DNA of 64,000 nucleotides, from NCBI GenBank assembly GCA_016204695.1, contig JACQKD010000001.1, forward strand, positions 68,976-132,975, written 5' to 3'. This document shows, piece after piece, positions 24,426 to 36,042 of the stretch. Source of the DNA: Candidatus Kaiserbacteria bacterium (GTDB lineage Bacteria; Patescibacteriota; Minisyncoccia; Phycocordibacterales; UBA918). A program made the position numbers and the translations under genes. Within the stretch, counting starts at the first letter, position 1; each line of letters begins with the position of its first letter. The notes under the pieces were generated by a model. It ran no database searches, was not told where the DNA came from, and saw only the letters and a list, made by a program, of their open reading frames with translations.

Positions 24426-25073
24426 CTATAGTGCGTCGAAAAACTGCTTGAGCTGTGTACCGACGGCGCGCATGCCTTTCTCGGTGAGGTGACAGCCGTC
24501 GTCGAGTACTTCCTCTGGCGCATGCGGAGCGAGCGTTGGTCCCGCATGCACATCGCCTTGCGCCGCAAGCTCGCGGACGAGCTCCTCACCGCGCGCGAGG
24601 CCCTCCGTGCCGGTGATCCTGCATACACCTGTCTGGTACGACGGTAAGGCGGAGACGTAAATTTCGACTCCCGGAATCCGGCCCTTGATACCTGCAATGA
24701 CCTTTTGCGCGTCGGCAAGGGTCGGCGTGTCGTCGCGCGGCACGCACAACTGCCACCAGATGACGCGAGTATTGGGATGTGCGCCGAGGTAGCGGTCGAA
24801 GGTATGCCAGAAGTCATTGTCGATATTCGCCCATTCTCTCACCGTGCCGCTGTCGAAGTCATGTTTGCGGTCGTCTGTCAGTTGCCAGAGGTCGTCTCCT
24901 CCCGCCATGTGGTAGCCCATCACCGATTGGGCTGTATTCGAACAGCCGATAAATCCGATGGTTGCGTCCGCGTTCGTTTCAAGAGGTTCGGGTGCGCGGT
25001 CTTTCCACAGATAACAGACCGCAAAACCCGCCGCAAATGCAAGAGGAATCAAGAGTATCCACAGATGTCTCAT
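24426..25073 (-). CDS. Hypothetical secreted protein (possible SGNH/GDSL-like hydrolase fold)
   Basis: Start at MRHLWILLIPLAFAAGFA (signal anchor, ATG 25073); IGFIGCSNT block near the N-terminus; GC-rich like the core genome. Confidence 0.45.
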   Translation of the reverse strand: MRHLWILLIPLAFAAGFAVCYLWKDRAPEPLETNADATIGFIGCSNTAQSVMGYHMAGGDDLWQLTDDRKHDFDSGTVREWANIDNDFWHTFDRYLGAHPNTRVIWWQLCVPRDDTPTLADAQKVIAGIKGRIPGVEIYVSALPSYQTGVCRITGTEGLARGEELVRELAAQGDVHAGPTLAPHAPEEVLDDGCHLTEKGMRAVGTQLKQFFDAL

Positions 25074-25152: not shown

Positions 25153-26178
25153 ATGGATAGAAAAGTGCTAAAAATTCTTTTAGGGGTGGTGGCCGTCGTT
25201 GTGGTGAGCACAATTGTTTTCGCTAACATAAAACAAATAGACGATACAGAAACATTAACAGGAGGGATTGAGCAAACCACCACGGCGCCAGCTTCAAGTA
25301 TTGCGACAAATTCTAATCCGACAGAAGACAGTACAGAAAATTCAGAAGAATCTGAAATAGTTAAAAAAGAAACAATTGCGCAAAATGTTACGAGCGTGGA
25401 CACTGTAACGGCAAGCGAATCGGAATCCACGGAAGTACAGACTACGAAAAGGAGTGAAAGTATAGAAAATACTAATTGGTGGAAACCCCATCCAAATACA
25501 TCGTGGCAATGGCAACTGACGGGAACACTAAATCAAAACTATGCCGTTGATATGTATGACGTGGACTTATTTGATAATTCAAAAAAAGCGATACGTGCAT
25601 TGCAAACCAAAGGCATCAAGGTCATTTGCTATTTCAGTGCCGGAAGTTATGAAGATTGGAGAATCGACAAGGGTGATTTTCCAAATAAGGTCAAGGGAGA
25701 CACTCTTGAAGGATGGGCAAATGAGAGATGGCTTGATATTTCCAAAATTGACCTACTTGCACCGATTATGGAGAGCAGATTGGATTTGGCGGTAGAAAAA
25801 GGGTGTGATGGTGTTGAGCCGGATAATGTGGACGGTTATCTGAACGACACCGGACTTGCTTTGACTTATCAAGACCAATTGACATATAACAAATGGCTTG
25901 CGGGAGAGGCACACAAAAAGGGATTGGCTATTGGTTTGAAAAATGATCTCGAGCAAATTCCCGAACTGGTTGATTATTTTGATTTTGCGTTAAATGAACA
26001 ATGTTTTGAATATGATGAATGCGAAACGCTTTTGCCATTCATTGAGCAAAACAAAGCGGTGTTTGGAGTAGAATATGAATTACACACAAAGAAATTTTGC
26101 AACGAGGCAATCAAGTTGAACTTCGATTGGTTGAAGATGGAATACGACTTGGATGGCGGAAGAATCTCTTGCAGGTAG
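25153..26178 (+). CDS. Glycoside hydrolase family 114 (endo-alpha-1,4-polygalactosaminidase-like), membrane-anchored or secreted
   Basis: N-terminal TM anchor, acidic linker, then a GH114 TIM-barrel with the characteristic WQWQL motif and the FSAGSYEDWR / VEPDNVDGY segments. Confidence 0.7.
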   Translation: MDRKVLKILLGVVAVVVVSTIVFANIKQIDDTETLTGGIEQTTTAPASSIATNSNPTEDSTENSEESEIVKKETIAQNVTSVDTVTASESESTEVQTTKRSESIENTNWWKPHPNTSWQWQLTGTLNQNYAVDMYDVDLFDNSKKAIRALQTKGIKVICYFSAGSYEDWRIDKGDFPNKVKGDTLEGWANERWLDISKIDLLAPIMESRLDLAVEKGCDGVEPDNVDGYLNDTGLALTYQDQLTYNKWLAGEAHKKGLAIGLKNDLEQIPELVDYFDFALNEQCFEYDECETLLPFIEQNKAVFGVEYELHTKKFCNEAIKLNFDWLKMEYDLDGGRISCR

Positions 26179-26226: not shown

Positions 26227-26913
26227 TTATAGAGCTATTTTCTGAGTTTGCGGAGATTTGAGAAAATCATTTATTTTATAAGTCATTTCTATGGTAACGA
26301 AAGGGGGTTTCTCTTGTGGAGCAAATAGTGGAGGTCTATTTTGCGCATCATTCAGTCTAACCGATGCTAAAACGAATTCATAAGGAGTTTCAGGCCTTAA
26401 ACTTTCACAAACCAATCTGTAAGTAGATACAATTCTAGTATTGCGTATAGGTATAATAGGTACGCTTTCTCCTTCTGTAGTTTCAAATGCGATTGCAGTG
26501 GTGGTCTGGTCTACTGGATAAAAGTCACAGCAAGGCATATCAATTACTTTGCCAACTCCAGCAATAAGATGGGGATTTTCGAATGTTATCCTCGAGTCAA
26601 AATCAGTTATTGTTTCGTTGCCATTGTTAATCAGAGTAAGTCGCGTCTCTGTCATGAATGTATTCCAATGGATACCGAAATACTCTCTTGTATAAGTGCT
26701 TGATGTGGCATATATCTCTATAACCACTGAATTCACTGGAGGGTGTATCCAATTTTTGATGTGTTTGAAAATACTGGGGTAATCGCGTAAAAAAGTCAGT
26801 AGAGAACAGATGGCAATAACCCCCATTAATACTGTTCCCAAGACTCCTCCCCCGAATGTTATTTTAAGGACTATAACTGCAATCAGTACAACAAATATCA
26901 TCGTGCTTATCAT
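26227..26913 (-). CDS. Hypothetical membrane-anchored protein (two N-terminal TM helices plus an extracytoplasmic domain)
   Basis: Low GC; no known family recognised. Confidence 0.45.
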   Translation of the reverse strand: MISTMIFVVLIAVIVLKITFGGGVLGTVLMGVIAICSLLTFLRDYPSIFKHIKNWIHPPVNSVVIEIYATSSTYTREYFGIHWNTFMTETRLTLINNGNETITDFDSRITFENPHLIAGVGKVIDMPCCDFYPVDQTTTAIAFETTEGESVPIIPIRNTRIVSTYRLVCESLRPETPYEFVLASVRLNDAQNRPPLFAPQEKPPFVTIEMTYKINDFLKSPQTQKIAL

Positions 26914-27047
26914 CTTGGCTCCCTACGTTGGACGAGTTCAGAACTATCAAATGGGACGAGTTTTTCAGAGAGGCAGAGTGGTTATCGGTCGCCGTGCCTA
27001 ACCTTGGCAATCTTGTTTCGGCATGAAAATAGCATATACTCCAATGT

Positions 27048-27554
27048 GTGCTGAACATACTCCATTTTGTCACTCCAGTTATTTTGTCGTTTGGCATTCT
27101 CATTACCATGTATTCCAAACTCATACTTGCTTTTGCTGTTGGGGCTATTGGCTCGGCCGCTTACATCACTGCACTTTATTTCAAGTTTATAGGTGAGACA
27201 GACGACCACAGGAGAATCATAATGATGCCGTTTCAGAACCTTGAGGGTATGTTGGACGGGACAACCATCAGAAAAATGAGTGTATCAAAATGTTTTTGGT
27301 ATTGTGTAGTGGGCGGTTGCATTGCTGTTATATTCCAATTTGATGTTCCTAATTTTGTCGCTGTACAGAGTTTGATACTTGGAGCGACATGGCCGGCGAT
27401 TGTGTCCCAGTTTCTGTCTGGCAGGATGGCAAGTCCTACATCTAGTGAGCTAGATTTGTTGAGAAGAGCGAGCTCCCCACTGTCTGTTGGAACTTCCTCT
27501 TTGGCAGAGCGTATAAGGAAAATAAAGGAACAAAGCAAACATGACAATCAATGA
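27048..27554 (+). CDS. Hypothetical polytopic small membrane protein (about 4 TM)
   Basis: 168 aa, hydrophobic helices, C-terminal polar tail; the stop overlaps the next gene's start by 14 nt. Confidence 0.45.
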   Translation: MLNILHFVTPVILSFGILITMYSKLILAFAVGAIGSAAYITALYFKFIGETDDHRRIIMMPFQNLEGMLDGTTIRKMSVSKCFWYCVVGGCIAVIFQFDVPNFVAVQSLILGATWPAIVSQFLSGRMASPTSSELDLLRRASSPLSVGTSSLAERIRKIKEQSKHDNQ

Positions 27555-27996
27555 ATTACTAAAAAAGCCGATTGAGATAATGTTAGAAAATAATGTCTCT
27601 GACGACATCGTTCAACCAAGCGATGTAGTTTCAAAATTACTTGAAAGGGTAGCGAGATTTTCTGACCAATCGGCCCTTGACTTTTTGATTGTTTATGCAG
27701 ACAAGGTGGACGGAAATTACTCAGCAAAAGCAGTAATCACACATAAGGAATTATCGGCACTTTTGGATTTAGTACAAGCACCAAACAATGCGGAAAAAAC
27801 CGTTCAGGAACTTGATTTAGAGGCTAAGTTTCCACTTAGATACTGGCTACATAAAAACGACCCCATTGAAAAAGCATACAATTTGTTTAAGGCAGACCTG
27901 ACCGATACCATAATCATCCTTGATGAGAAAGAAATATATGTTGGGAAAGTCAAACGGAATCCTTTTGTGGAGCGACTAAAAATACTACTTTCTTAG
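27541..27996 (+). CDS. Hypothetical soluble protein, translationally coupled to the upstream membrane protein
   Basis: 151 aa with no recognised motif; in an operon with 27048 and 28036. Confidence 0.45.
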   Translation: MTINELLKKPIEIMLENNVSDDIVQPSDVVSKLLERVARFSDQSALDFLIVYADKVDGNYSAKAVITHKELSALLDLVQAPNNAEKTVQELDLEAKFPLRYWLHKNDPIEKAYNLFKADLTDTIIILDEKEIYVGKVKRNPFVERLKILLS

Positions 27997-28035
27997 TGTC
28001 TTTGCTTTTCTTTACTCTGTAAAGTAAAGTAAAGC

Positions 28036-28824
28036 GTGATGGGTAGTACTCTCACGCAATCGGCACAACAAACTCTCAAGTTTTTTGAGGAGTTTATTAG
28101 GAGAAAAGAGGTTGCTGATTTTATTAAGAAATATAGGGCATATCTCAACTTACCTCCGAGTGGTCTATCTCTCACTAAAGAGGATGAGAGGGAACTGAAA
28201 GAAGGTGTACTACCACATTTGTATATTCCAACAAGAGCCAGAGAAGCATATCCAAAAGATGAAAAAGAGAAACCGTTTAGGGTAGTAAACACCTGTCTGG
28301 CTTTTACGGGGCAACAAGGAGTCAAACTATGGAGTGTAGGGTTGATGCTATTGCATTACCTATTTTTTAATAGAATTACCGCTATACCAGTCAACTTTTT
28401 AGGTACCAATAGAGACGACTTGCTTCGGTTGGAGTATTTGCCAGACGAGCTTTTATGGTTTGATAATGAGGACCACTTTCTTCTCAAATGTATGTACGAA
28501 CATTTTGATGAGGTAAGCAAGACACATCCGGTTGTTTTATACATAAACCCCGAAGTATCCCAGCGACAAATACAGGATTTCCTTGCTAAAAATTGGGCGG
28601 AGATTGAGCAGTACAGAAAGGATGTAAAAAGCCCCATTACCGGTCCGAGAAAGAAAAATAAGCGCACACAGGAGCGCAATGATTTCATTTATGAGCACCG
28701 ACAACTGCCGAGAAAGGAGATAATGCATCTCCTCTATGATAAATATGGAGCCGAGCTTGATATTGATTACGGATACATCGGCAAGATAATCTCGTTGGAA
28801 AAAAAGAGGCGTGAAAAGAAGTGA
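28036..28824 (+). CDS. Hypothetical protein with a basic C-terminal tail (possible nucleic-acid binding)
   Basis: 262 aa; C-terminal KKNKRTQERN...EKKRREKK is basic; no recognised family. Confidence 0.45.
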   Translation: MMGSTLTQSAQQTLKFFEEFIRRKEVADFIKKYRAYLNLPPSGLSLTKEDERELKEGVLPHLYIPTRAREAYPKDEKEKPFRVVNTCLAFTGQQGVKLWSVGLMLLHYLFFNRITAIPVNFLGTNRDDLLRLEYLPDELLWFDNEDHFLLKCMYEHFDEVSKTHPVVLYINPEVSQRQIQDFLAKNWAEIEQYRKDVKSPITGPRKKNKRTQERNDFIYEHRQLPRKEIMHLLYDKYGAELDIDYGYIGKIISLEKKRREKK

Positions 28825-28848
28825 TTGCGGATACTTTCCGCAATCACT
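28821..28848. terminator. Hairpin gtgattgcgg-N8-ccgcaatcac overlapping the stop of the 28036 gene (terminator or origin structure)
   Basis: Perfect 10-bp inverted repeat. Confidence 0.45.
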
Positions 28849-28881
28849 TATGTCTTATACAGACAGTTTTCTGACGGATAA

Positions 28882-28907
28882 CCTGTAGTCGCACGCTACA
28901 GGTTTTT
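28882..28907 (+). terminator. Rho-independent terminator cctgtag-tcgcacg-ctacagg-ttttt
   Basis: 7-bp stem followed by T5. Confidence 0.6.
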
Positions 28908-29088
28908 ATGTTTTCAGAGCCAGAAAACGAGTACAAAACGATAAGCCAAGACACCGATATTGTCCGGCGGGTTTTTGATGACTTTGAGGCACGGAGCAAC
29001 TTTGTTGGCTTCTTTGACCTTGCGTTCAAAGTTGCAAAGCGAAACCCGACGCTGTGGGCGGATATTAGCGGACAAGCACAACCACGCC

Positions 29089-30219
29089 ATGATTGATACT
29101 GTCATCCTCTCTGTTCCAAGAGATAAAGTAATTACGCTTGACGAAACGGCGCGCGGGGTTGCGCCGTGGGACCTGCACGAACGGACGCAGTCCTATAGCG
29201 TCTATGTGAAAAATCCGTCAAGCAAGGACAAGGCAACGGGTCTGTCTTTTCCGCGTCTTACTGGCTGGCGCAGAAGAAACTATGGCGGCATAGGAGGATG
29301 GACATCAGTCCTAAAGATTGAGTTTTCTGTCGCAAAACTCCTCTATAAAAACAATGTGGACGAATTAGAGGATGGGCAATTTGCGCTCGTGGTTGATACT
29401 CTATTGGACCGATTGGACCGGATGGGTGTGCGAATACAGAGGCAGGATATTGAACTGGCAGAGGTACGCGCCGTGCATTACGCGAAAAACATTGAACTTA
29501 CCAGTGGGTACACCTCGCTCTATGCGCTTGGCGAGCTTGGAAAGGTGAATATCACTAAACGATTGGACATGACGAAAACGCGGTTTGTAAACGATGGCGA
29601 GAGTTTGTGCTTTTACGCCAAGTCGCACTCGGTCGTACTGTATGACAAGATAGCCGACTTGCGGAAAAACCAAAAACGGGCGGTAGACCTTGAGCAAACG
29701 GCGTACCAGATGAGTTTGTTTCCCTCACTCAACAATGTGCGCGAGATTTTGCGTCTTGAGGTCCGGTTGAGCGAAAAACGAAAAATGAGCAGTGTCTTTC
29801 AGAAGCTCGGTATACCAGAAAACCCGACTTTCAAGGATGTGTTCTGTGCCAAGAAAAGCCAGATGGTAGTGCGGCACTACTGGGATACGATGATTGAGGG
29901 CAACAGCTTACTCCTGTTCTCGCATTCGCTCACAGCAAAAGACCTGCTCAAGCAAATACTTATCGCACGACCAGACGCAAAGGCGACAAAGCCCATTTAT
30001 CTTGCCGGTCTCGTGCTTCTCGCCCGCGAGGGCAACGGCTTGCGCGAACTGCGGACAATTCTTGCGAAGCGAAGCAATGACCGGCTATGGTATCGGTTAC
30101 GGACTGACCTTGCGGACACAACGGCTGGGCTGGACAGATTGCGACCGCGTGAGTGGTATGACCAAGTGAAAGGGGCACTGGAGAGTTATCAACCTGTGCA
30201 TTTGCACTGTAAAGAATAG
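29089..30219 (+). CDS. Rolling-circle replication initiator, Rep_trans family (pT181 RepC-like)
   Basis: The segment SVVLYDKIADLRKNQK...ILRLEVRLSEKRK matches the Rep_trans active-site region (RIYNK...WRVEIELKR). Start set at MIDTVILSVPRD (29089); the longer ORF starts at 28960. Confidence 0.6.
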   Translation: MIDTVILSVPRDKVITLDETARGVAPWDLHERTQSYSVYVKNPSSKDKATGLSFPRLTGWRRRNYGGIGGWTSVLKIEFSVAKLLYKNNVDELEDGQFALVVDTLLDRLDRMGVRIQRQDIELAEVRAVHYAKNIELTSGYTSLYALGELGKVNITKRLDMTKTRFVNDGESLCFYAKSHSVVLYDKIADLRKNQKRAVDLEQTAYQMSLFPSLNNVREILRLEVRLSEKRKMSSVFQKLGIPENPTFKDVFCAKKSQMVVRHYWDTMIEGNSLLLFSHSLTAKDLLKQILIARPDAKATKPIYLAGLVLLAREGNGLRELRTILAKRSNDRLWYRLRTDLADTTAGLDRLRPREWYDQVKGALESYQPVHLHCKE

Positions 30220-30228
30220 TCAAGTATT

Positions 30229-30438
30229 ATGAGGGATGTAAACATGGTGCAAAGTATGAAAAAATCAAACAAGGAGTTTTATACGGCCCAAGAACTTGCC
30301 GACAAGCTGTCACTCAATGTGATGACCATTTATCGGTACATAGATAGGGGCACACTGAAAGCGTACAAAATTGGCAAGGAGTTTCGGATTGAGAAAGACG
30401 AGTTTGAGAAGTTTCTGAATAAGGCAAAAATAAAATAA
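30229..30438 (+). CDS. Excisionase-family helix-turn-helix DNA-binding protein (candidate recombination directionality factor or regulator)
   Basis: YTAQELADKLSLNVMTIYRYIDRGTLKAYKIGKEFRIEKDEFEKFL matches the excisionase-family HTH consensus. Confidence 0.6.
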   Translation: MRDVNMVQSMKKSNKEFYTAQELADKLSLNVMTIYRYIDRGTLKAYKIGKEFRIEKDEFEKFLNKAKIK

Positions 30439-30441
30439 TTT

Positions 30442-31989
30442 ATGGCATCACTCAATTTCAAAGGAAAGTCGGCGGTTTGGAACCATCACTTATCGGTCCC
30501 GTATCACACGCTTGACTTAGACGTAAAAAAGTCCCGCAAGGGCGCGGACAGCGACGAGAACCTTATCATCCACGGAGACAATTTGCTTGCGCTCAAGGCC
30601 CTATTACCCAAATACCAAGGCCGTATAAAGTGCATCTACATTGACCCGCCTTACAACACTGGGAACGAGAACTGGGTGTATAACGACAAGGTAAACAGTC
30701 CGCTTATCAAAGAGTGGCTAGGCAAGACAGTCGCCAAAGACGACCTCACCAAACATGACAAGTGGCTCTGCATGATGACTCCGCGTCTCAAGCTCCTGCG
30801 GGACCTACTTGCCGATGATGGCGTGATTTTTGTGAGCATTGACGATAACGAGCAAGCACACTTGAAAAATCTAATGGATGAAATTTTTGACGAGGGCAAC
30901 TTTATTGGTGAGTTAATTCACCAAAGGGCAAAGGGTGGTGGTCAAGCGAAACAAGTTGTAAAAGGGCATGATTATATCTGTGCCTACGCAAAAAACATTG
31001 ATAGTGGAATAGTTTTAAGGAGAGCCAAAGTTATCCAACAGGATGTTGTGGAAATAGATGGAAAGGAGTATTTGCGCGACGACGATGTTGTAAGAAAACA
31101 GTTTGGTAAATACGACAAATCTCTCGGAGACAGAAGGTGTTTTTATGAGGAATTAGAGAAATATAAGGGACCAACCAAGAAAAAAGAAATTGACGAAAAA
31201 ATAAAGACCGGCGAACTGGTTTTAGAAAAACATCGGAATGGCATGCGTCTGATTGTGAGGTACACATTATTAGACGAAACATCATCAAAGTTATACTCAA
31301 TAATCAAGGTGCTTTCCGAAGACGGAAAAGATGATTTAGCAGACTTGGGTATCCAAGGGTTTAATTATCCAAAACCAGTTGAACTAATTAGACAACTTAT
31401 TCAGTCCGTCATTCTCAACTCCAACACTAAAAATGAAATTATTTTAGATTCTTTTGCTGGTTCCGGCACCACCGCTCATGCGGTCATCAACCTCAATAAA
31501 GAGGATGGCGGCAACCGGAAGTTTATTTTAGTTGAGATGGAGGACTATGCCGACAAAATAACCGCAGAGCGCGTCCGGCGCGTGATTAAAAAAGACAAGC
31601 TCAAGACCGGCTTCTCGTTCTACAACCTCGGACCGGCCATTGATGCCGAAACGATATTGACTGGTAAGCTCCCAACCTACGAACAATTTGCCAAGTATGT
31701 GTTTTATCTTGCTACTGGCAAGAATCTGAAAGACGAAAAGAAAATAAAAGAGAAAGAGTATTTTGTTGGTAAAGATGGCAACGAGACAATCTACCTGCTC
31801 TACAAACAGGACCCAGAAGCCCTAAAAACGCTCGCCATTACGCTGGACTGGGCGCAGATGGCCCATGGTAAGCACGCCGATAAGAAAATCGTTTACGCGC
31901 CCGCGTGCTACTTGGACGAGGAATCGCTGGATAAGTTCAATATCCAGTTCGTAAGCATTCCCTATAACCTCTTTGAAAAGACAACCTAA
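30442..31989 (+). CDS. Type III restriction-modification system methyltransferase (Mod), N6-adenine, beta-class
   Basis: Motif IV IYIDPPYNTGN comes before motif I DSFAGSGTTAHA (beta-class order). The gene sits directly upstream of the res gene. Confidence 0.85.
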   Translation: MASLNFKGKSAVWNHHLSVPYHTLDLDVKKSRKGADSDENLIIHGDNLLALKALLPKYQGRIKCIYIDPPYNTGNENWVYNDKVNSPLIKEWLGKTVAKDDLTKHDKWLCMMTPRLKLLRDLLADDGVIFVSIDDNEQAHLKNLMDEIFDEGNFIGELIHQRAKGGGQAKQVVKGHDYICAYAKNIDSGIVLRRAKVIQQDVVEIDGKEYLRDDDVVRKQFGKYDKSLGDRRCFYEELEKYKGPTKKKEIDEKIKTGELVLEKHRNGMRLIVRYTLLDETSSKLYSIIKVLSEDGKDDLADLGIQGFNYPKPVELIRQLIQSVILNSNTKNEIILDSFAGSGTTAHAVINLNKEDGGNRKFILVEMEDYADKITAERVRRVIKKDKLKTGFSFYNLGPAIDAETILTGKLPTYEQFAKYVFYLATGKNLKDEKKIKEKEYFVGKDGNETIYLLYKQDPEALKTLAITLDWAQMAHGKHADKKIVYAPACYLDEESLDKFNIQFVSIPYNLFEKTT

Positions 31990-31991
31990 CT

Positions 31992-34478
31992 ATGCTCAAG
32001 GACTATCAAGTGGATGTGGTCAACAAGGTCAAGGACTTTTTCGATACGCTAGATACCAAGCGCGCGACATTTGAAAATCTGCCAAACGACATAAAAGCCA
32101 GTCTTGGTACTGACTACTTATCGTTTGCATTTACCGGTACTCCCTACGCACAATTTGCGGACCGGCCGCGTTCGGGCGCAGGCGCGCTCTACCCGCGCGT
32201 GTGCATCAAAATGCCGACCGGCGGCGGCAAGACATTGATAGCGATTGAAACCATCCGCGCCTATCAAAACATTTTCGCAAAGCGCAAAACCGGTCTCGTG
32301 GTCTGGATAACACACCGCGAGCAAATATACCGCCAGACGATTGAAAACTTGCAAAACAAGAGCCATATCTACCGACAACTTTTGGACCAAGCGAGCGGCA
32401 ACCGCACCATCATCCTTGAGAAAGGCCAGCCGATACGCGAGCAGGATGTACGGGAAAACCTTGTTGTGCTAATGCTGATGATTCAATCGGCCGCCAGAGA
32501 CACGAATAAAATCTTTGAGGATAGCGGCGGATACACGGACTTTTTTCCTACGGATAATCGCTATGACTTACATAAAAAATTGATTGAGGCCGTTCCGAAC
32601 CTTGATAAAACACCGGAGAGCTTGTGGGACCAGATGCAAGTGAAAACGAGCTTGGGCAATGTGGTACGCACGCTCTCTCCGCTCATCATCGTGGACGAGT
32701 TTCATACTATGTTTACCGACAATGCACGGGCAACACTGGACGGACTCAATCCGAGCGTGATTGTCGGGCTGTCGGCGACTCCGAAGCGAGAAATGAATCT
32801 GCTCGTCAATATAACTGGCCAGCAGTTGAAAGCCGCAGAAATGATAAAGCTAGACATGCACCTCTTTGCGCCAACGCAAAACGGCGATTGGCGAGGGATG
32901 CTGGCGGGTATCAAGCAAAAGCGCGACCAGCTTGAGCGCAAGGCGCGGAAACTAGAACAGAACCAAGGCGCGTACATCCGACCGATTGCGCTTATCCAAG
33001 TGGAGCGCACCGGCCGAGACCAACGAGGGCGGGGATTGGTCCATAGCGAAGATGTCCGTGAGCATCTGGTGAGCTTGGGCGTACCGAGGCACGAGATAGC
33101 AGTCAAATCAAGCTCGTTGGACGAGATAAAACAGCAGAAGCTCCTCTCCAAAGAGAGCGAGGTGCGATATATCATCACGAGAGAGGCATTAAAAGAGGGT
33201 TGGGACTGCTCATTTGCCTACATTCTCGGCGTGATACCGAACGCGCGCAATAATTCGTCCATGACGCAACTAGTCGGTCGTGTTCTGCGCCAACCCTACG
33301 CGAAGAAAACCGGCGTTGCCGAACTAGACGAGAGTTACATCTACTTTGCGAGCGGACACACGCAGGAAGCGTTGGAGCGAGTGAAAAAGGGTTTTGACGA
33401 GGAAGGGTTAGGTGATGTCTCCGGCGGCATCCAAACGCTAGATAAGCGAGGACAAGTCGTGTCTGCGCCACGGGTAGTAAGAATCAAAAAAGATATTCTC
33501 AAGGATTATCCAGAATCGCTCTTTTTGCCGGTGTGGTTGATGAAACAGGGCACGACATATCGCCGCTTTGTGTATGAGGTTGATATAAAACCTGCTATTC
33601 GTTGGCAAGATGTCGTGCTTGAGGATTGGATGTCGCACATCATGCCATCCATCGGAACGACCCGCAGACGACAGACAGAAGTGATAGTAGGGCTGGAACC
33701 CGAAACGACAGCTCGGCAGTCAGAAGTGGACGAGGCCACAACCTTTGATGTGTTGTATCTGGCACGCCGACTCTACGAGACGATTGAAAATGCGTTTATT
33801 GCTTATGACATGGCCGCACAAGTGGTTGCCGCCTTGAGTGGACAGGTATCACAAGAATGGCTGGACCGAGATGCCGGATATATTGCGAGAGAGCTGGAAA
33901 TGCACCTCTTGACGCATCGCAAGACGGCAGAAAACACGATATTCAGTGAGCTGATGGAAAGCGGGCAGTTATGCCTTGCTGTGTCGGATGATGATGATTT
34001 GGGATTCACTATGCCGCGTACCGATGTAGTTGAAAACAATATCCGCTCGGCCTACGGCCTGACGCTGTACGAAGATGTTGATGTCGGCTCACTCAATCTG
34101 CTAGAACGAGAAGTGGCGCGCATTATTGAGGCCAGCCCGAAAGTGCTTTGGTGGGCGCGCAATAAGGTAGCGAGGGAATGGTATGCGATACAGGGCTGGC
34201 AGAGGGGCAAAGTGCGGCCGGACTTTATCATTGCGCGGAAAGATAAGAATGACGAGCTTGAGTTTGTGTATGTGGTTGAGAGCAAGGGCGAGCATTTGAT
34301 TGGCAACGCGGACACACAGTACAAGGACGAGGTTTTTGAACGGATGAATAACATGCGGGGTAAGATTAAAAAGTTACTGTTTCGCACCACGACAGTCCGG
34401 CTCAACGACCGTTTCGAGTTTGAGTTATTGCCGCAAAACGAGGAGGAGTTGCGATTACGCACTAAATTGAATGCATAA
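31992..34478 (+). CDS. Type III restriction endonuclease (Res): SF2 helicase-like ATPase with a C-terminal PD-(D/E)xK nuclease
   Basis: Walker A CIKMPTGGGKTLIA, DEAH-like IIVDEFHTM, motif III GLSATP, and C-terminal PDFIIARKD...EFVYVVESKGEH. Confidence 0.85.
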   Translation: MLKDYQVDVVNKVKDFFDTLDTKRATFENLPNDIKASLGTDYLSFAFTGTPYAQFADRPRSGAGALYPRVCIKMPTGGGKTLIAIETIRAYQNIFAKRKTGLVVWITHREQIYRQTIENLQNKSHIYRQLLDQASGNRTIILEKGQPIREQDVRENLVVLMLMIQSAARDTNKIFEDSGGYTDFFPTDNRYDLHKKLIEAVPNLDKTPESLWDQMQVKTSLGNVVRTLSPLIIVDEFHTMFTDNARATLDGLNPSVIVGLSATPKREMNLLVNITGQQLKAAEMIKLDMHLFAPTQNGDWRGMLAGIKQKRDQLERKARKLEQNQGAYIRPIALIQVERTGRDQRGRGLVHSEDVREHLVSLGVPRHEIAVKSSSLDEIKQQKLLSKESEVRYIITREALKEGWDCSFAYILGVIPNARNNSSMTQLVGRVLRQPYAKKTGVAELDESYIYFASGHTQEALERVKKGFDEEGLGDVSGGIQTLDKRGQVVSAPRVVRIKKDILKDYPESLFLPVWLMKQGTTYRRFVYEVDIKPAIRWQDVVLEDWMSHIMPSIGTTRRRQTEVIVGLEPETTARQSEVDEATTFDVLYLARRLYETIENAFIAYDMAAQVVAALSGQVSQEWLDRDAGYIARELEMHLLTHRKTAENTIFSELMESGQLCLAVSDDDDLGFTMPRTDVVENNIRSAYGLTLYEDVDVGSLNLLEREVARIIEASPKVLWWARNKVAREWYAIQGWQRGKVRPDFIIARKDKNDELEFVYVVESKGEHLIGNADTQYKDEVFERMNNMRGKIKKLLFRTTTVRLNDRFEFELLPQNEEELRLRTKLNA

Positions 34479-36009
34479 CAACACTATGAAAGCAGTCATT
34501 TTAGCGAGAGTATCAACCGAGGAGCAGAAAGATGCGGGCAATTCTCTGCCAGCGCAGATTGAGCGTATAAAGGCGTATTGTGCGCGCAGGGGGCTTGAGG
34601 TAGCGGAGACATTTAGCTTTGACGAGAGTGCGTATAAAACAAAACGGGACGAGTTTGATAAAATCCTCTCTTTTGTAAACGAGTCAAAAGAGAAAATCGC
34701 CATTTGTTTTGACAAGGTAGACCGGTTGTCCCGCAACATCTTTGATAAGCGGGTTGCCCTGTTGTACGAAAAAGCAGTTGCCGATGAGATAGAGTTACAC
34801 TTTGTCTCGGATGGGCAAGTCATCAATAATGCGATGAATGCGGGCGACAAGTTTCGTTTTGGAATGCAACTCGGGCTTTCCAAATACTACTCGGACGCGA
34901 TTAGCGACAATGTGAAGCGGGCGTTTGAGCAGAAGCGGCGCAACGGCGAGTGGACTGGTCCGGTGCGTATTGGGTACAAAAATGTCTCGCTGGATAGCGA
35001 GAAGCGATTGCGGAAAGACATTATGCTTGACCCAGAGCGCGCGCCCTTGGTGAAGAAACTTTTTGAGCTTTACGCTATGGGTAATGATTCCATTACGACC
35101 TTGTGGCGCAAGATAACCGAGATGGGCCTTAAAAGTCCGAACGGCAATATGCTCGCGCGGAGCAATGTTGAGCTGATACTCAAGGACTCGTTCTATTACG
35201 GCACGGCTCACTCGCACAGATATGGACTCTACGAGCATCGCTACCCGCGTCTTATTTCAAGAGAACTATTTGAGAAGTGTCAAGAAGTGCGCCTTGGCAG
35301 GAGCTGGAAACGGTCAAAACTTGCCTCTGCGATGGAGTACATTTTCAAGGGATTGCTTACCTGCAAACGCTGTGGCTGTTTGATGACACCAGAAATAAAG
35401 AAGGGCAAGTTTATCTATTACTCGTGCACAAACGCCAAGGGGATATGTAAACGGCTCTATGTGCCGGAAAAAACGCTCCTAGAGCGCGTCCATGCTATTT
35501 TTAGCGATTTTGAAAGTATCCCGAGAGATGTGCAGGAACGGCTAGTTGACGAACTCCGCGCGCTCAATGAGAGCGAGAAGGACTATCATAATAAGCAACT
35601 GGTACGAGTGAGAGCTGAATACGACCGCGTGCAGAAGCGAGTCAATGCTCTGTTGGATATGCGTTTGGACCAGAGTATTACCCACGCCGACTATGACAAA
35701 AAACTACAAGAGCTCAAAGATGAGCAGTACCATTTGGACATAGAAGCCGAGGAGTATACCAAGGCCGACCACGAGTACCATATCCATGTAGGTACTGTGT
35801 TCAACCTTGCCCGCCGTATGAAAGACATTTTTGAGAGTTCTGAAATTGTGGAAAAACGCGCCTTTCTCAACTTCCTACTTCAGAACCCGACCGTATCGGG
35901 CAAAAACCTAGAGTTTACCTTGCGAAAACCTTTCAATCTGATACATGAACTCGCTCTCAATCCTAACTGGCTCCGCGGGCTGGATTCGAACCAGCGACCA
36001 ACGCTTTAA
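34471..36009 (+). CDS. Large serine recombinase/integrase (resolvase domain + recombinase domain + zinc ribbon + coiled coil)
   Basis: Catalytic Ser context AVILARVSTEEQ, then DKVDRLSRN, the recombinase domain, zinc ribbon CKRCGC...YYSCTNAKGIC and a coiled coil. The last 42 nt lie inside tRNA-Asn. Confidence 0.85.
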   Translation: MHNNTMKAVILARVSTEEQKDAGNSLPAQIERIKAYCARRGLEVAETFSFDESAYKTKRDEFDKILSFVNESKEKIAICFDKVDRLSRNIFDKRVALLYEKAVADEIELHFVSDGQVINNAMNAGDKFRFGMQLGLSKYYSDAISDNVKRAFEQKRRNGEWTGPVRIGYKNVSLDSEKRLRKDIMLDPERAPLVKKLFELYAMGNDSITTLWRKITEMGLKSPNGNMLARSNVELILKDSFYYGTAHSHRYGLYEHRYPRLISRELFEKCQEVRLGRSWKRSKLASAMEYIFKGLLTCKRCGCLMTPEIKKGKFIYYSCTNAKGICKRLYVPEKTLLERVHAIFSDFESIPRDVQERLVDELRALNESEKDYHNKQLVRVRAEYDRVQKRVNALLDMRLDQSITHADYDKKLQELKDEQYHLDIEAEEYTKADHEYHIHVGTVFNLARRMKDIFESSEIVEKRAFLNFLLQNPTVSGKNLEFTLRKPFNLIHELALNPNWLRGLDSNQRPTL

Positions 36010-36042
36010 CAGAGCGCCGCTCTACCACTGAGCTACCGCGGA
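35968..36042 (-). tRNA. tRNA-Asn (anticodon GUU)
   Basis: I folded it by hand. The 7-bp acceptor stem TCCGCGG/CCGCGGA, the D arm GCTC-AGTGGTA-GAGC, the anticodon stem-loop GCGCT-CUGUUAA-AGCGT (GUU) and the T arm GCTGG-TTCGAAT-CCAGC are all present, with discriminator G and an encoded CCA; 75 nt. Confidence 0.9.

Follow-up and report, generated by a model that had tools for sequence, protein, structure and literature searches.

Organization of the locus

The window analysed here, a stretch of 64,000 nucleotides from a genome of Candidatus Kaiserbacteria (GenBank assembly GCA_016204695.1, contig JACQKD010000001.1, positions 68,976 to 132,975; all positions below are those of the window), carries four unannotated genes between 26227 and 28824, in a low-GC region that also encodes a Type III restriction-modification (R-M) system and a large serine recombinase. 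An initial annotation had regarded these genes as one candidate defence or exclusion module, consisting of a divergently transcribed membrane protein and a three-gene operon isolated by terminators. All four open reading frames (ORFs) are present where that annotation had placed them: the 228-aa ORF at 26227-26913 on the minus strand, and on the plus strand the 168-aa ORF encoding a membrane protein (27048-27554), the 151-aa ORF (27541-27996) and the 262-aa ORF (28036-28824). The overlap of 14 nt between the stop of the 168-aa gene and the start of the 151-aa gene (27541 versus 27554) is real, and the description of the products was confirmed for the N-terminal transmembrane (TM) anchor of the 228-aa protein, the polytopic nature of the 168-aa protein (3-4 predicted TM segments) and the basic C-terminal tail of the 262-aa protein, which ends in SLEKKRREKK.

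The four ORFs sit in a stretch of 39-41% GC, while the GC content of the host genome, a member of the candidate phyla radiation (CPR), is about 56%. The low-GC island as a whole spans about 25.1-36.0 kb of the window with a GC content of 39-49%. None of the 228-, 168-, 151- and 262-aa proteins gave a significant match in Pfam, NCBIfam, PADLOC or PHROGs, and a comparison of the four with PADLOC-DB v2 returned noise only (E about 0.006 or weaker).

Distribution of the four genes among related loci

Fifteen of the loci fetched for comparison (numbered here with the prefix L) encode homologues of the 262-aa protein at 44-68% identity. Searches of these 15 loci by tblastn with the proteins of the window element recovered the 262-aa protein, a 376-aa replication protein-like product, an HTH_17 protein and the integrase throughout, and gave zero matches for the 228-, 168- and 151-aa proteins or for the GH114 glycoside hydrolase encoded at the left end of the island. 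Family hidden Markov models (HMMs) of the 168/151-aa pair and of the 228-aa family were likewise without a match in the same loci. Conversely, HMM searches of the other loci that carry the 168/151-aa pair, at least 11 in number, detected no member of the 262-aa or 228-aa families. The 228-aa family was found by HMM in no fetched locus, and no evidence tying the 228-aa protein to the pair was found. The interval is thus composed of three independent units, namely the 228-aa gene, the 168/151-aa gene pair and the 262-aa gene, which co-occur nowhere else.

That all four genes constitute one defence or exclusion cassette, with a divergent membrane protein facing a three-gene operon closed off by terminators, is hardly credible on this evidence. 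The genes are indeed adjacent and unannotated, they share a low-GC island, the element around them has R-M genes, and those on the plus strand are tightly spaced, the 14-nt overlap being followed by a short gap that holds no hairpin. Against this, the 262-aa gene is present in 15/15 related loci without the other three genes and the pair in at least 11 loci without the 262- or 228-aa genes, and the conserved downstream partners of the 262-aa gene are the rep-, xis- and int-like genes. This gene also has a conserved upstream element of its own (28018-28034), so that the three genes do not form an isolated operon. The stop codon of the 151-aa gene lies 20 nt to the left of this element, and the pair therefore abuts the element backbone without belonging to it. 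Hairpins do exist in the region where isolating terminators had been proposed (28821-28907), at 28819-28849 and 28880-28904, the second being followed by a T-run; they are, however, a conserved feature connecting the 262-aa gene with the downstream rep operon in every related element, including those that lack the pair. The proximity to the Type III R-M genes was also only partly borne out: the element does carry mod and res, but three backbone genes (28908-30438) lie between them and the four genes.

Since the 262-aa gene is kept together with the genes of the Rep_trans-like protein, the HTH_17 protein and the serine integrase in every relative, a function in the maintenance or regulation of the mobile element is indicated for it, and the defence reading of this gene was abandoned. 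The suggested arrangement of a small membrane protein with a soluble partner survives for the 168/151-aa pair, though not for all four genes. Given the lack of co-occurrence and at least four housekeeping contexts of the pair (see below), a defence role is a possibility for two of the genes, but as a reading of all four it lacks support.

The 168-aa and 151-aa proteins

The 168-aa protein, read here from a GTG codon at 27048, starts at ATG 27108 in public gene calls and is there 148 aa long. Its 38 homologues share 41-64% identity and none of them has a Pfam domain; a profile search of the PDB with the family gave no match. Alignment of the family revealed a strongly conserved core in which one TM segment has GS..Y and the following one WY..GG, with Q...Q...GATWP...QFLSGR thereafter, and invariant polar residues are located within the TM segments. 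As judged from its sequence, the protein would represent a new family of small polytopic membrane proteins.

A word-seeded search with the 151-aa protein retrieved one homologue only. Examination of the membrane protein loci for which downstream sequence is available showed that in 11/11 of them the next gene after the membrane gene, overlapping it or within about 10 nt, encodes a 151-aa homologue, with partner homology at blastp E values of 1e-22 to 1e-43 and HMM E values of 1e-14 to 1e-68. A profile derived from 11 partners matched CBS proteins of the PDB at E=1.6e-6, 7.2e-5 and 4.7e-3, with OpuCA and AMPK-gamma ranking lower. An AlphaFold2 model, drawn on solely for the topology of the 151-aa protein and to check consistency, displays the secondary structure beta-alpha-beta-beta-alpha twice, which fits a tandem CBS arrangement, and all of the top 50 Foldseek matches of this model (50/50) were Bateman/CBS modules (TM0892, IMPDH, AcuB, CorB/CNNM, CBSX and MgtE). 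The sequence keeps the h-h-T-x-x-E signature (AVITHKE) in the first CBS motif and G-K-V-K-R in the second. Two distant members of the family retain the architecture of the pair with a canonical CBS partner: that of L031 matches the PDB at E=6e-13, and that of L036 at E=5.6e-15 and also the HMM of the 151-aa family at 2.8e-7.

The PDB profile matches, the Foldseek result, the topology and the canonical partners in L031 and L036 identify the 151-aa protein as a CBS (Bateman) pair that stands alone and is divergent, being recognisable by profile and fold only. The statement that none of the four proteins belongs to a recognised family consequently holds for direct family scans, which were empty for all four, but not for this member of the CBS pair superfamily. 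Identity to the window copy amounts to 41-61% for the membrane protein versus 20-48% for the CBS partner, the membrane partner being consistently the more conserved. The 168- and 151-aa genes are an old, strictly linked and translationally coupled two-gene module.

Genomic contexts of the membrane/CBS pair

The pair was identified in 5 of 185,579 GTDB species representatives, distributed over several CPR phyla, and a metagenome scan gave 6 loci. R-M or abortive infection (Abi)-like genes are located at a distance of 5 kb or less from the pair in 5 of 14 informative contexts, a small sample judged from those neighbours that were annotated. Neighbourhoods with R-M or defence-like genes include the window element itself, with its Type III R-M system; L017-19, where the pair resides on a different serine-recombinase element directly after a methyltransferase/EcoO109I-like R-M operon and before a DUF2726 gene; L025, where it directly follows an Eco57I-type methyltransferase/Tsp45I operon; L031, where it is 1.7 kb from an MjaI R-M system; and L022, where it is flanked by an AbiO/Nhi/PDC-S41-like Schlafen helicase and, on the other side, a Cas4-like nuclease. 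Other neighbours of the pair are ambiguous (DUF4238, DUF3800, an ADP-ribosylglycohydrolase and a trypsin-like protease).

At least four contexts are core neighbourhoods without defence genes. The pair is found inside the grpE-dnaK-dnaJ cluster at two different positions in two lineages (L034, 5638-6581; L035, 1326-2194), and it adjoins M23 peptidase-gltX-murG-ftsW in L020 and L032. In L024 its neighbours are an amidohydrolase and a transporter of the major facilitator superfamily (MFS). The dnaK and cell-wall loci may be insertion hot spots, or else the association points to a function in stress or in the envelope.

Two of the loci, L022 and L023, come from metagenome-assembled genomes (MAGs) labelled 'uncultured Gammaproteobacteria', in which the pair is 55-61% identical to the CPR copies; either these contigs were misbinned or the pair has been transferred horizontally outside the CPR. 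In L036 (8172-9046; IMG/VR UViG_3300031604_000166) a distant homologue of the membrane protein, followed by a canonical CBS pair, is carried on a predicted viral contig. A neighbouring protein of 472 aa in this contig had no match in the PDB.

The occurrence in such unrelated contexts, comprising another serine-recombinase element, dnaK and cell-wall loci and a predicted viral contig, indicates that the pair is an autonomous, horizontally mobile module which moves independently of the element, and which in the window is cargo in the hypervariable left arm.

Possible functions of the membrane/CBS pair

We propose that the stand-alone CBS pair, probably an adenine-nucleotide sensor, would control the small, conserved membrane protein with its 3-4 TM segments, which would act as a channel- or transporter-like protein. 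By analogy with other Bateman modules, the ligand of the sensor is most likely an adenine-containing compound. The association of a Bateman module with a membrane protein is shared with MgtE, CorB/CorC-CNNM (DUF21-CBS), ClC, the ATPase subunits OpuA/OpuC and HPP-CBS (COG3448), and the matches of the 151-aa protein in Foldseek and the PDB include the CBS modules of CorB/CNNM, MgtE, OpuCA and ClC-5. The conserved polar residues of the 168-aa protein are likewise a feature of channels and transporters. Unlike in MgtE, CNNM, ClC and OpuA, the CBS pair is a separate polypeptide produced from a translationally coupled gene, and the membrane protein, with its roughly 150 aa and 3-4 TM segments, has no match to any of the CBS-transporter families in Pfam or the PDB.

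A channel or transporter is favoured because the membrane protein is highly conserved and because the pair occurs in core-genome contexts, while a conflict system is favoured by a distribution that is patchy, by carriage on mobile elements, by R-M genes next to the pair and by the faster evolution of the sensor. We lean slightly towards a physiological role, in ion or solute homeostasis, over abortive infection.

According to the latter alternative, the pair alone (27048-27996) would be a new abortive infection or defence module in which the CBS protein senses a change of an adenine-containing ligand that is linked to infection (ATP, S-adenosylmethionine (SAM), Ap4A or a cyclic nucleotide) and opens or releases the membrane protein, so that the cell depolarises. 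This we consider a tentative possibility. In two unrelated loci (L017 and L025) the pair directly follows a Type II R-M operon and is read in the same direction, and it lies near the MjaI system of L031 and beside the helicase and the nuclease of L022. Two different integrative elements and one IMG/VR contig carry it, it is sparsely and patchily distributed, and of its two members the sensor evolves the faster. A CBS domain has moreover been validated recently in one defence protein, DS-11, a single-protein CBS-HEPN anti-phage system obtained with DefensePredictor, before which no characterised defence system had a CBS domain and which is the only validated case of this kind that the study names (PMC13092281). 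The pair would resemble DS-11 in that a CBS domain would sense an adenine derivative and control a toxic effector; unlike the fused protein with a nuclease effector that is DS-11, its putative effector would be a membrane protein on a separate polypeptide. On the other side, the pair has no PADLOC match, and the grpE-dnaK-dnaJ and M23 peptidase-gltX-murG-ftsW neighbourhoods, each seen twice, hold no defence genes. The conserved polar intramembrane residues are, we infer, more typical of channels and transporters than of membrane-disrupting effectors, and an enrichment near R-M genes is apparent only, the 5/14 contexts being a bare count and the 5 loci of the genome scan and 6 of the metagenome scan too few for a statistical test.

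The distant pair on the predicted viral contig, together with the combination of a small membrane protein and a cytoplasmic regulator, would also fit a module of phage origin, carried as a moron and acting as a holin/antiholin-like lysis timer or in superinfection exclusion. Such an origin is very unlikely. Only 1 of about 17 loci is on a predicted viral contig, where the neighbouring 472-aa protein is without a match, and neither an endolysin nor other phage genes accompany the pair in the other loci. Holins are usually far less conserved than the 168-aa membrane protein.

Conserved cis-elements flanking the 262-aa gene

Alignment of seven elements showed that the sequence directly before the start codon of the 262-aa gene, TGTAAAGTAAAGTAAAG (28018-28034, plus strand), which is 17 nt long and contains three GTAAA repeats, is conserved in 7/7, and that nothing upstream of it is conserved among them. 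It is unique in the window (chance expectation 0), and in the fetched loci exact copies are found solely in front of 262-aa homologues. This sequence marks the conserved left edge of the element backbone and is a candidate operator, promoter or iteron.

Downstream of the gene, three features follow each other on the plus strand. Hairpin 1 (28819-28849), with 13 pairs, overlaps the stop codon of the 262-aa gene and is found in closer relatives only. The motif TCTTATA (28853-28859), located between the two hairpins, is invariant in the seven-element alignment and is a candidate -10 box or nick site; its placement in the loop of a small conserved hairpin as a feature of the family was rejected, as it holds in the window and L001 only. 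Hairpin 2 (AACCTGTAGT/GCTACAGGTT) together with its T-run occupies 28880-28907, the stem-loop extending to 28904, and has the appearance of a terminator or attenuator; the T-run ends exactly at the ATG of the small ORF that follows. Hairpin 2 is present in 7/7 elements, and compensatory changes preserve its stem, as in AACCTGTAG/CTACAGGTT, AACCTGATG/CATCAGGTT and AACCTGC/GCAGGTT, with stems that vary between elements and remain paired (TGTAG/CTACA, TGATG/CATCA and TGC/GCA). The hairpin region folds far better than shuffled sequences (z = -8.4); the number of hairpins in the scanned region of 5.5 kb, which is 4, shows no excess over shuffles (4.9).

The region 28819-28907 has the GC-rich hairpin and subsequent T-run of an intrinsic terminator; the supposed isolating terminators would be a conserved control or origin element in front of rep. 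Hairpin 2, located directly before the operon of the small ORF and rep, could gate rep expression by attenuation or could form part of an origin. In plasmid pT181, repC is controlled by countertranscript-driven attenuation. The similarity to pT181 repC consists in a terminator-like hairpin immediately 5' of a Rep_trans-type reading frame; unlike in pT181, no antisense RNA or promoter was identified in the window, and hairpin 2 precedes a small ORF overlapping rep and could equally be an origin element.

The 262-aa backbone protein

In public gene calls the 262-aa protein starts at ATG 28039 and has 261 aa; an identical protein of 261 aa is listed for a Candidatus Kaiserbacteria MAG as hypothetical protein HY416_00455. 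The 46 homologues of the 262-aa protein come exclusively from CPR bacteria or metagenomes and bear no functional names, and its gene, the first of the backbone, was found in 15/15 related loci. Analysis of the protein revealed about 200 N-terminal residues that are joined by a basic linker to a three-helix helix-turn-helix (HTH) DNA-binding domain at the C-terminus, whose fold is comparable to that of solved DNA-binding domains. The HTH match is generic and covers about 51 aa, many transcription factors scoring nearly equally, and no Pfam HTH model matches the protein. The N-terminal 200 aa or so have no structural neighbour in the PDB or BFVD. The resemblance to Mu Mor/C activators, the DNA-binding domains of small terminases, StbA and HTH domains of the TetR and sigma-4 type concerns only about 50 of the 262 residues.

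From these data we infer that the 262-aa protein is a DNA-binding regulator of the element or an origin or relaxosome accessory factor. It would act on the cis-elements that flank its own gene, namely the GTAAA repeats upstream and the TCTTATA motif with the covarying hairpin downstream.

The similarity to small terminases raises the alternative that the protein is a small-terminase-like or a packaging or hijacking factor and that the element is a phage satellite, and not a plasmid-like or mobilisable element. We regard this as extremely unlikely: the similarity lies within the same generic HTH match, tblastn against 50,697 phage genomes and searches of IMG/VR and BFVD gave no relative of the protein, capsid, portal and other structural genes are absent from all elements, and the adjacent gene resembles a Rep_trans initiator.

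Backbone and cargo of the integrative element

The gene that begins after hairpin 2 (28908-29096, plus strand) encodes a small backbone protein of 62 aa, about 55 aa in relatives, and its end overlaps the start of rep by 8 nt. The ORF is called at the same place in relatives, and the motif LVGxFxLLIxxDKRxNPxLY of its product is found in 7 elements.

The following gene (29089-30219, plus strand) encodes a 376-aa protein, a probable rolling-circle initiator or relaxase of the Rep_trans superfamily. It matched PHROG 702 ('replication protein') in a co-linear manner at E=8.7e-5. A catalytic tyrosine pattern of the form h-h-Y-[DN]-K followed by R-x-E-x-[ER] was found in the family, Y185-D-K and R222-x-E224-x-R226 being invariant in 5 members, and the stretch VLY185DK...LRLEVRLSEKR parallels IRIY188NK...WRVEIELKR of RepD from pC221. 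Both motifs lie inside the stretch aligned to Rep_trans and PHROG 702. Comparison of the 376-aa protein with phages and plasmids by tblastn gave no match, its homologue in L004 had one chance-level match only among plasmids, and a profile search of the PDB with the family likewise returned one chance-level match only. The protein is thus probably an initiator of the Rep_trans superfamily, a call that is kept at 'probable' because it rests on two weak HMM matches and a motif.

Further to the right, all on the plus strand, are the gene for an HTH_17 protein (30229-30438; Pfam E=1.3e-13) resembling excisionases or recombination directionality factors (RDFs) and kept in relatives; the Type III R-M genes mod (30442-31989; Pfam N6_N4_Mtase) and res (31992-34478; Pfam ResIII), which occupy a right-hand cargo slot; and the gene for the large serine recombinase or integrase (34471-36009; Pfam Resolvase, Recombinase and Zn_ribbon_recom), with 40-74% identity in relatives. 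The integration target is a tRNA-Asn(GTT) gene on the minus strand (35968-36042; ARAGORN and Rfam), which is overlapped by the 3' end of the integrase gene.

The order of genes is fixed in related loci: the 262-aa homologue, a gap of about 70-90 nt, the ORF of about 55 aa, the protein of about 375 aa, the HTH_17 protein, variable cargo and the large serine recombinase, with an extra small ORF between the 375-aa protein and HTH_17 in some of them. All complete elements terminate at tRNA-Asn(GTT), which their integrase gene overlaps. The integrase beside its conserved target (window and 5 loci), the RDF-like gene and the foreign base composition characterize the region as an integrative element.

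The integrase ORF of the window reads 42 nt into the opposite-strand tRNA-Asn(GTT) gene, its stop codon being a TAA located in the complement of the anticodon loop; overlaps of 16-42 nt are also present in L001, L003, L004, L009 and L011. Part of the C-terminus of the integrase may therefore be encoded across the attachment site.

Cargo in the right-hand slot of relatives consists of a Dam-type methyltransferase, PLD/SNF2 and MmeI-like proteins, an N4/N6 methyltransferase together with a large protein that has an N6_Mtase domain, or else a Type III R-M system. In L004 (12332-18863) the slot contains genes for a 1160-aa PLD/SNF2-helicase protein and a 1018-aa MmeI-like methyltransferase-endonuclease, a difference in cargo which indicates that whole restriction or defence modules are exchanged between elements in this slot. 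Upstream of the 262-aa homologues, different elements have nothing in common apart from two R-M controller HTH proteins that occur as a pair, and the left side is therefore regarded as a hypervariable cargo arm. Left-arm cargo in relatives includes Type II R-M systems (L006 and L014), a PD-(D/E)XK protein (L004) and DUF5655 (L009).

The element is closest, among known kinds, to those integrative and mobilizable (IMEs) and integrative and conjugative elements (ICEs) of Firmicutes in which a MobT/Rep_Trans initiator-relaxase is paired with a site-specific recombinase, such as ICEBs1/Tn916 with MobT and streptococcal IMEs (PMC5704250). The likeness comprises a small integrated element with an integrase, an excisionase-like HTH protein, a Rep_trans-like protein and R-M cargo slots, as well as integration at the 3' end of a tRNA gene; as in those elements, the Rep_trans-like protein could serve rolling-circle maintenance, mobilisation or both. 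The CPR element differs in its Patescibacteria hosts, in that a large serine and not a tyrosine integrase targets the tRNA, in a Rep-like protein that remains below the Pfam threshold, in two backbone families (262 aa and about 55 aa) without annotation, and in that no coupling protein or oriT is recognisable. In a search of the literature, integrative elements of such kind in CPR bacteria were found nowhere described.

The 228-aa protein and the GH114 glycoside hydrolase

The 228-aa gene, whose ATG is preceded by a GGGAG Shine-Dalgarno sequence, encodes a protein that is anchored by an N-terminal TM segment and has a C-terminal domain, uncharacterised and about 150 aa long. When 1.84 billion representatives were searched exhaustively, a single relative with 45% identity emerged, besides about 30 that are remote (E 1e-8 to 1e-4). 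The remote relatives share the C-terminal 150 residues or so only, and most of them have 1-4 predicted N-terminal TM helices; none of the relatives carries a relevant Pfam domain. The 228-aa protein is thus a near-orphan membrane-anchored cargo protein, which is probably exposed at the cell surface.

The 228-aa gene adjoins the gene for a secreted or anchored GH114 glycoside hydrolase (25153-26178, plus strand; Pfam Glyco_hydro_114, E=8.5e-88; 41% GC), the first gene of the low-GC island. The hydrolase has an N-terminal TM or signal segment and an acidic Ser/Thr-rich linker and is without a counterpart in related elements. It is cargo unique to the window element and is possibly a surface enzyme relevant to an episymbiotic lifestyle.

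Observations in other loci

In L011 (1-18205; also L012 and L013) two different serine-recombinase elements are arranged in tandem. The first ends at tRNA-Arg(TCT) and has a 574-aa recombinase, and the next is a tRNA-Asn element whose Type III R-M system is close to that of the window (mod 60%, res 51% and integrase 74% identity). L006 (1-12143) contains a degenerate copy of the element, which has kept a backbone gene of 253 aa, the small ORF and part of rep but is not accompanied by an integrase; it adjoins a dense defence island of PycTM, SduA_C, Type I R-M and HTH controller proteins.

Fusions of LexA_DNA_bind and Peptidase_S24 with an N6_N4 DNA methyltransferase are encoded in L006 (13252-14775) and L014 (6314-8179), where they adjoin restriction enzymes of the TaqI or MvaI/BcnI type; that of L014 is inside the left cargo arm. 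Such a fusion could be a self-cleaving, damage-responsive methyltransferase.

Assessment and implications

Taken together, the interval is best explained by three units, independent of one another, that reside on an integrative element about 10.9 kb in size, and we consider it probable that this explanation holds jointly with the roles proposed above for each unit. The analysis itself establishes the split into three units, the synteny, the CBS nature of the 151-aa protein, the HTH domain and the conservation of the cis-elements, whereas the DNA targets, the gating, the ligand and the biological roles are proposals. Several observations weigh against it. The gap between the 151- and 262-aa genes amounts to 39 nt and contains no hairpin, so that read-through co-transcription of the two genes is possible in the window. 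The AlphaFold2 model of the 151-aa protein, made from a two-sequence alignment, has a mean predicted local distance difference test (pLDDT) score of 59, and four members of the family gave no match to Pfam CBS PF00571 at E<=10. The R-M or Abi-like genes in 5/14 contexts of the pair fit defence as well as, or better than, housekeeping. For the Rep-like family, the best member (the homologue in L011) aligned with Pfam Rep_trans PF02486 over 146 residues at E=3.1e-4 and 20.8 bits, below the cut-off of 29.6, and an hhalign comparison of the family with the single sequence of pC221 RepD gave no signal. The left boundary was not located either, attL searches revealing no long direct or inverted repeats and no left-end sequence shared with relatives, and the 228-aa and GH114 genes are thus placed in the element by GC content alone. 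The sole tRNA-like fragment on the left side, a 14/15 match to the T-arm of tRNA-Asn at 24929-24943, was judged to be due to chance (E=0.15) and is inside a high-GC host gene.

A more far-reaching proposal has two parts. The pair could be the first abortive infection system made of a stand-alone CBS sensor and a small membrane effector, which would protect against phage as a back-up to neighbouring R-M systems by sensing changes of SAM, ATP or another adenine ligand that the phage induces and would collapse the membrane potential; separately, the backbone of the 262-aa, 55-aa and Rep_trans-like proteins could define a tRNA-Asn serine-integrase family, not found described, that shuttles R-M systems among CPR bacteria. 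That both parts are correct together is rather doubtful.

The low-GC island demonstrates that adjacency inside such an island does not by itself indicate a functional cassette. The membrane/CBS pair offers a compact and testable case of a Bateman sensor encoded apart from its membrane partner; its ligand and activity would show either that membrane-based abortive infection makes use of CBS sensing, in what would be a defence architecture of a new type, or that a new family of small channels exists. Patescibacteria (CPR) have tiny genomes, and their routes of gene exchange are little understood. The locus reveals a coherent family of elements of about 8-11 kb that encode a tRNA-Asn serine integrase, a Rep_trans-like initiator and two backbone proteins without annotation and that have cis-elements conserved among them, and since their cargo slots hold mostly R-M systems, these elements may be a route for the spread of defence genes in the CPR.

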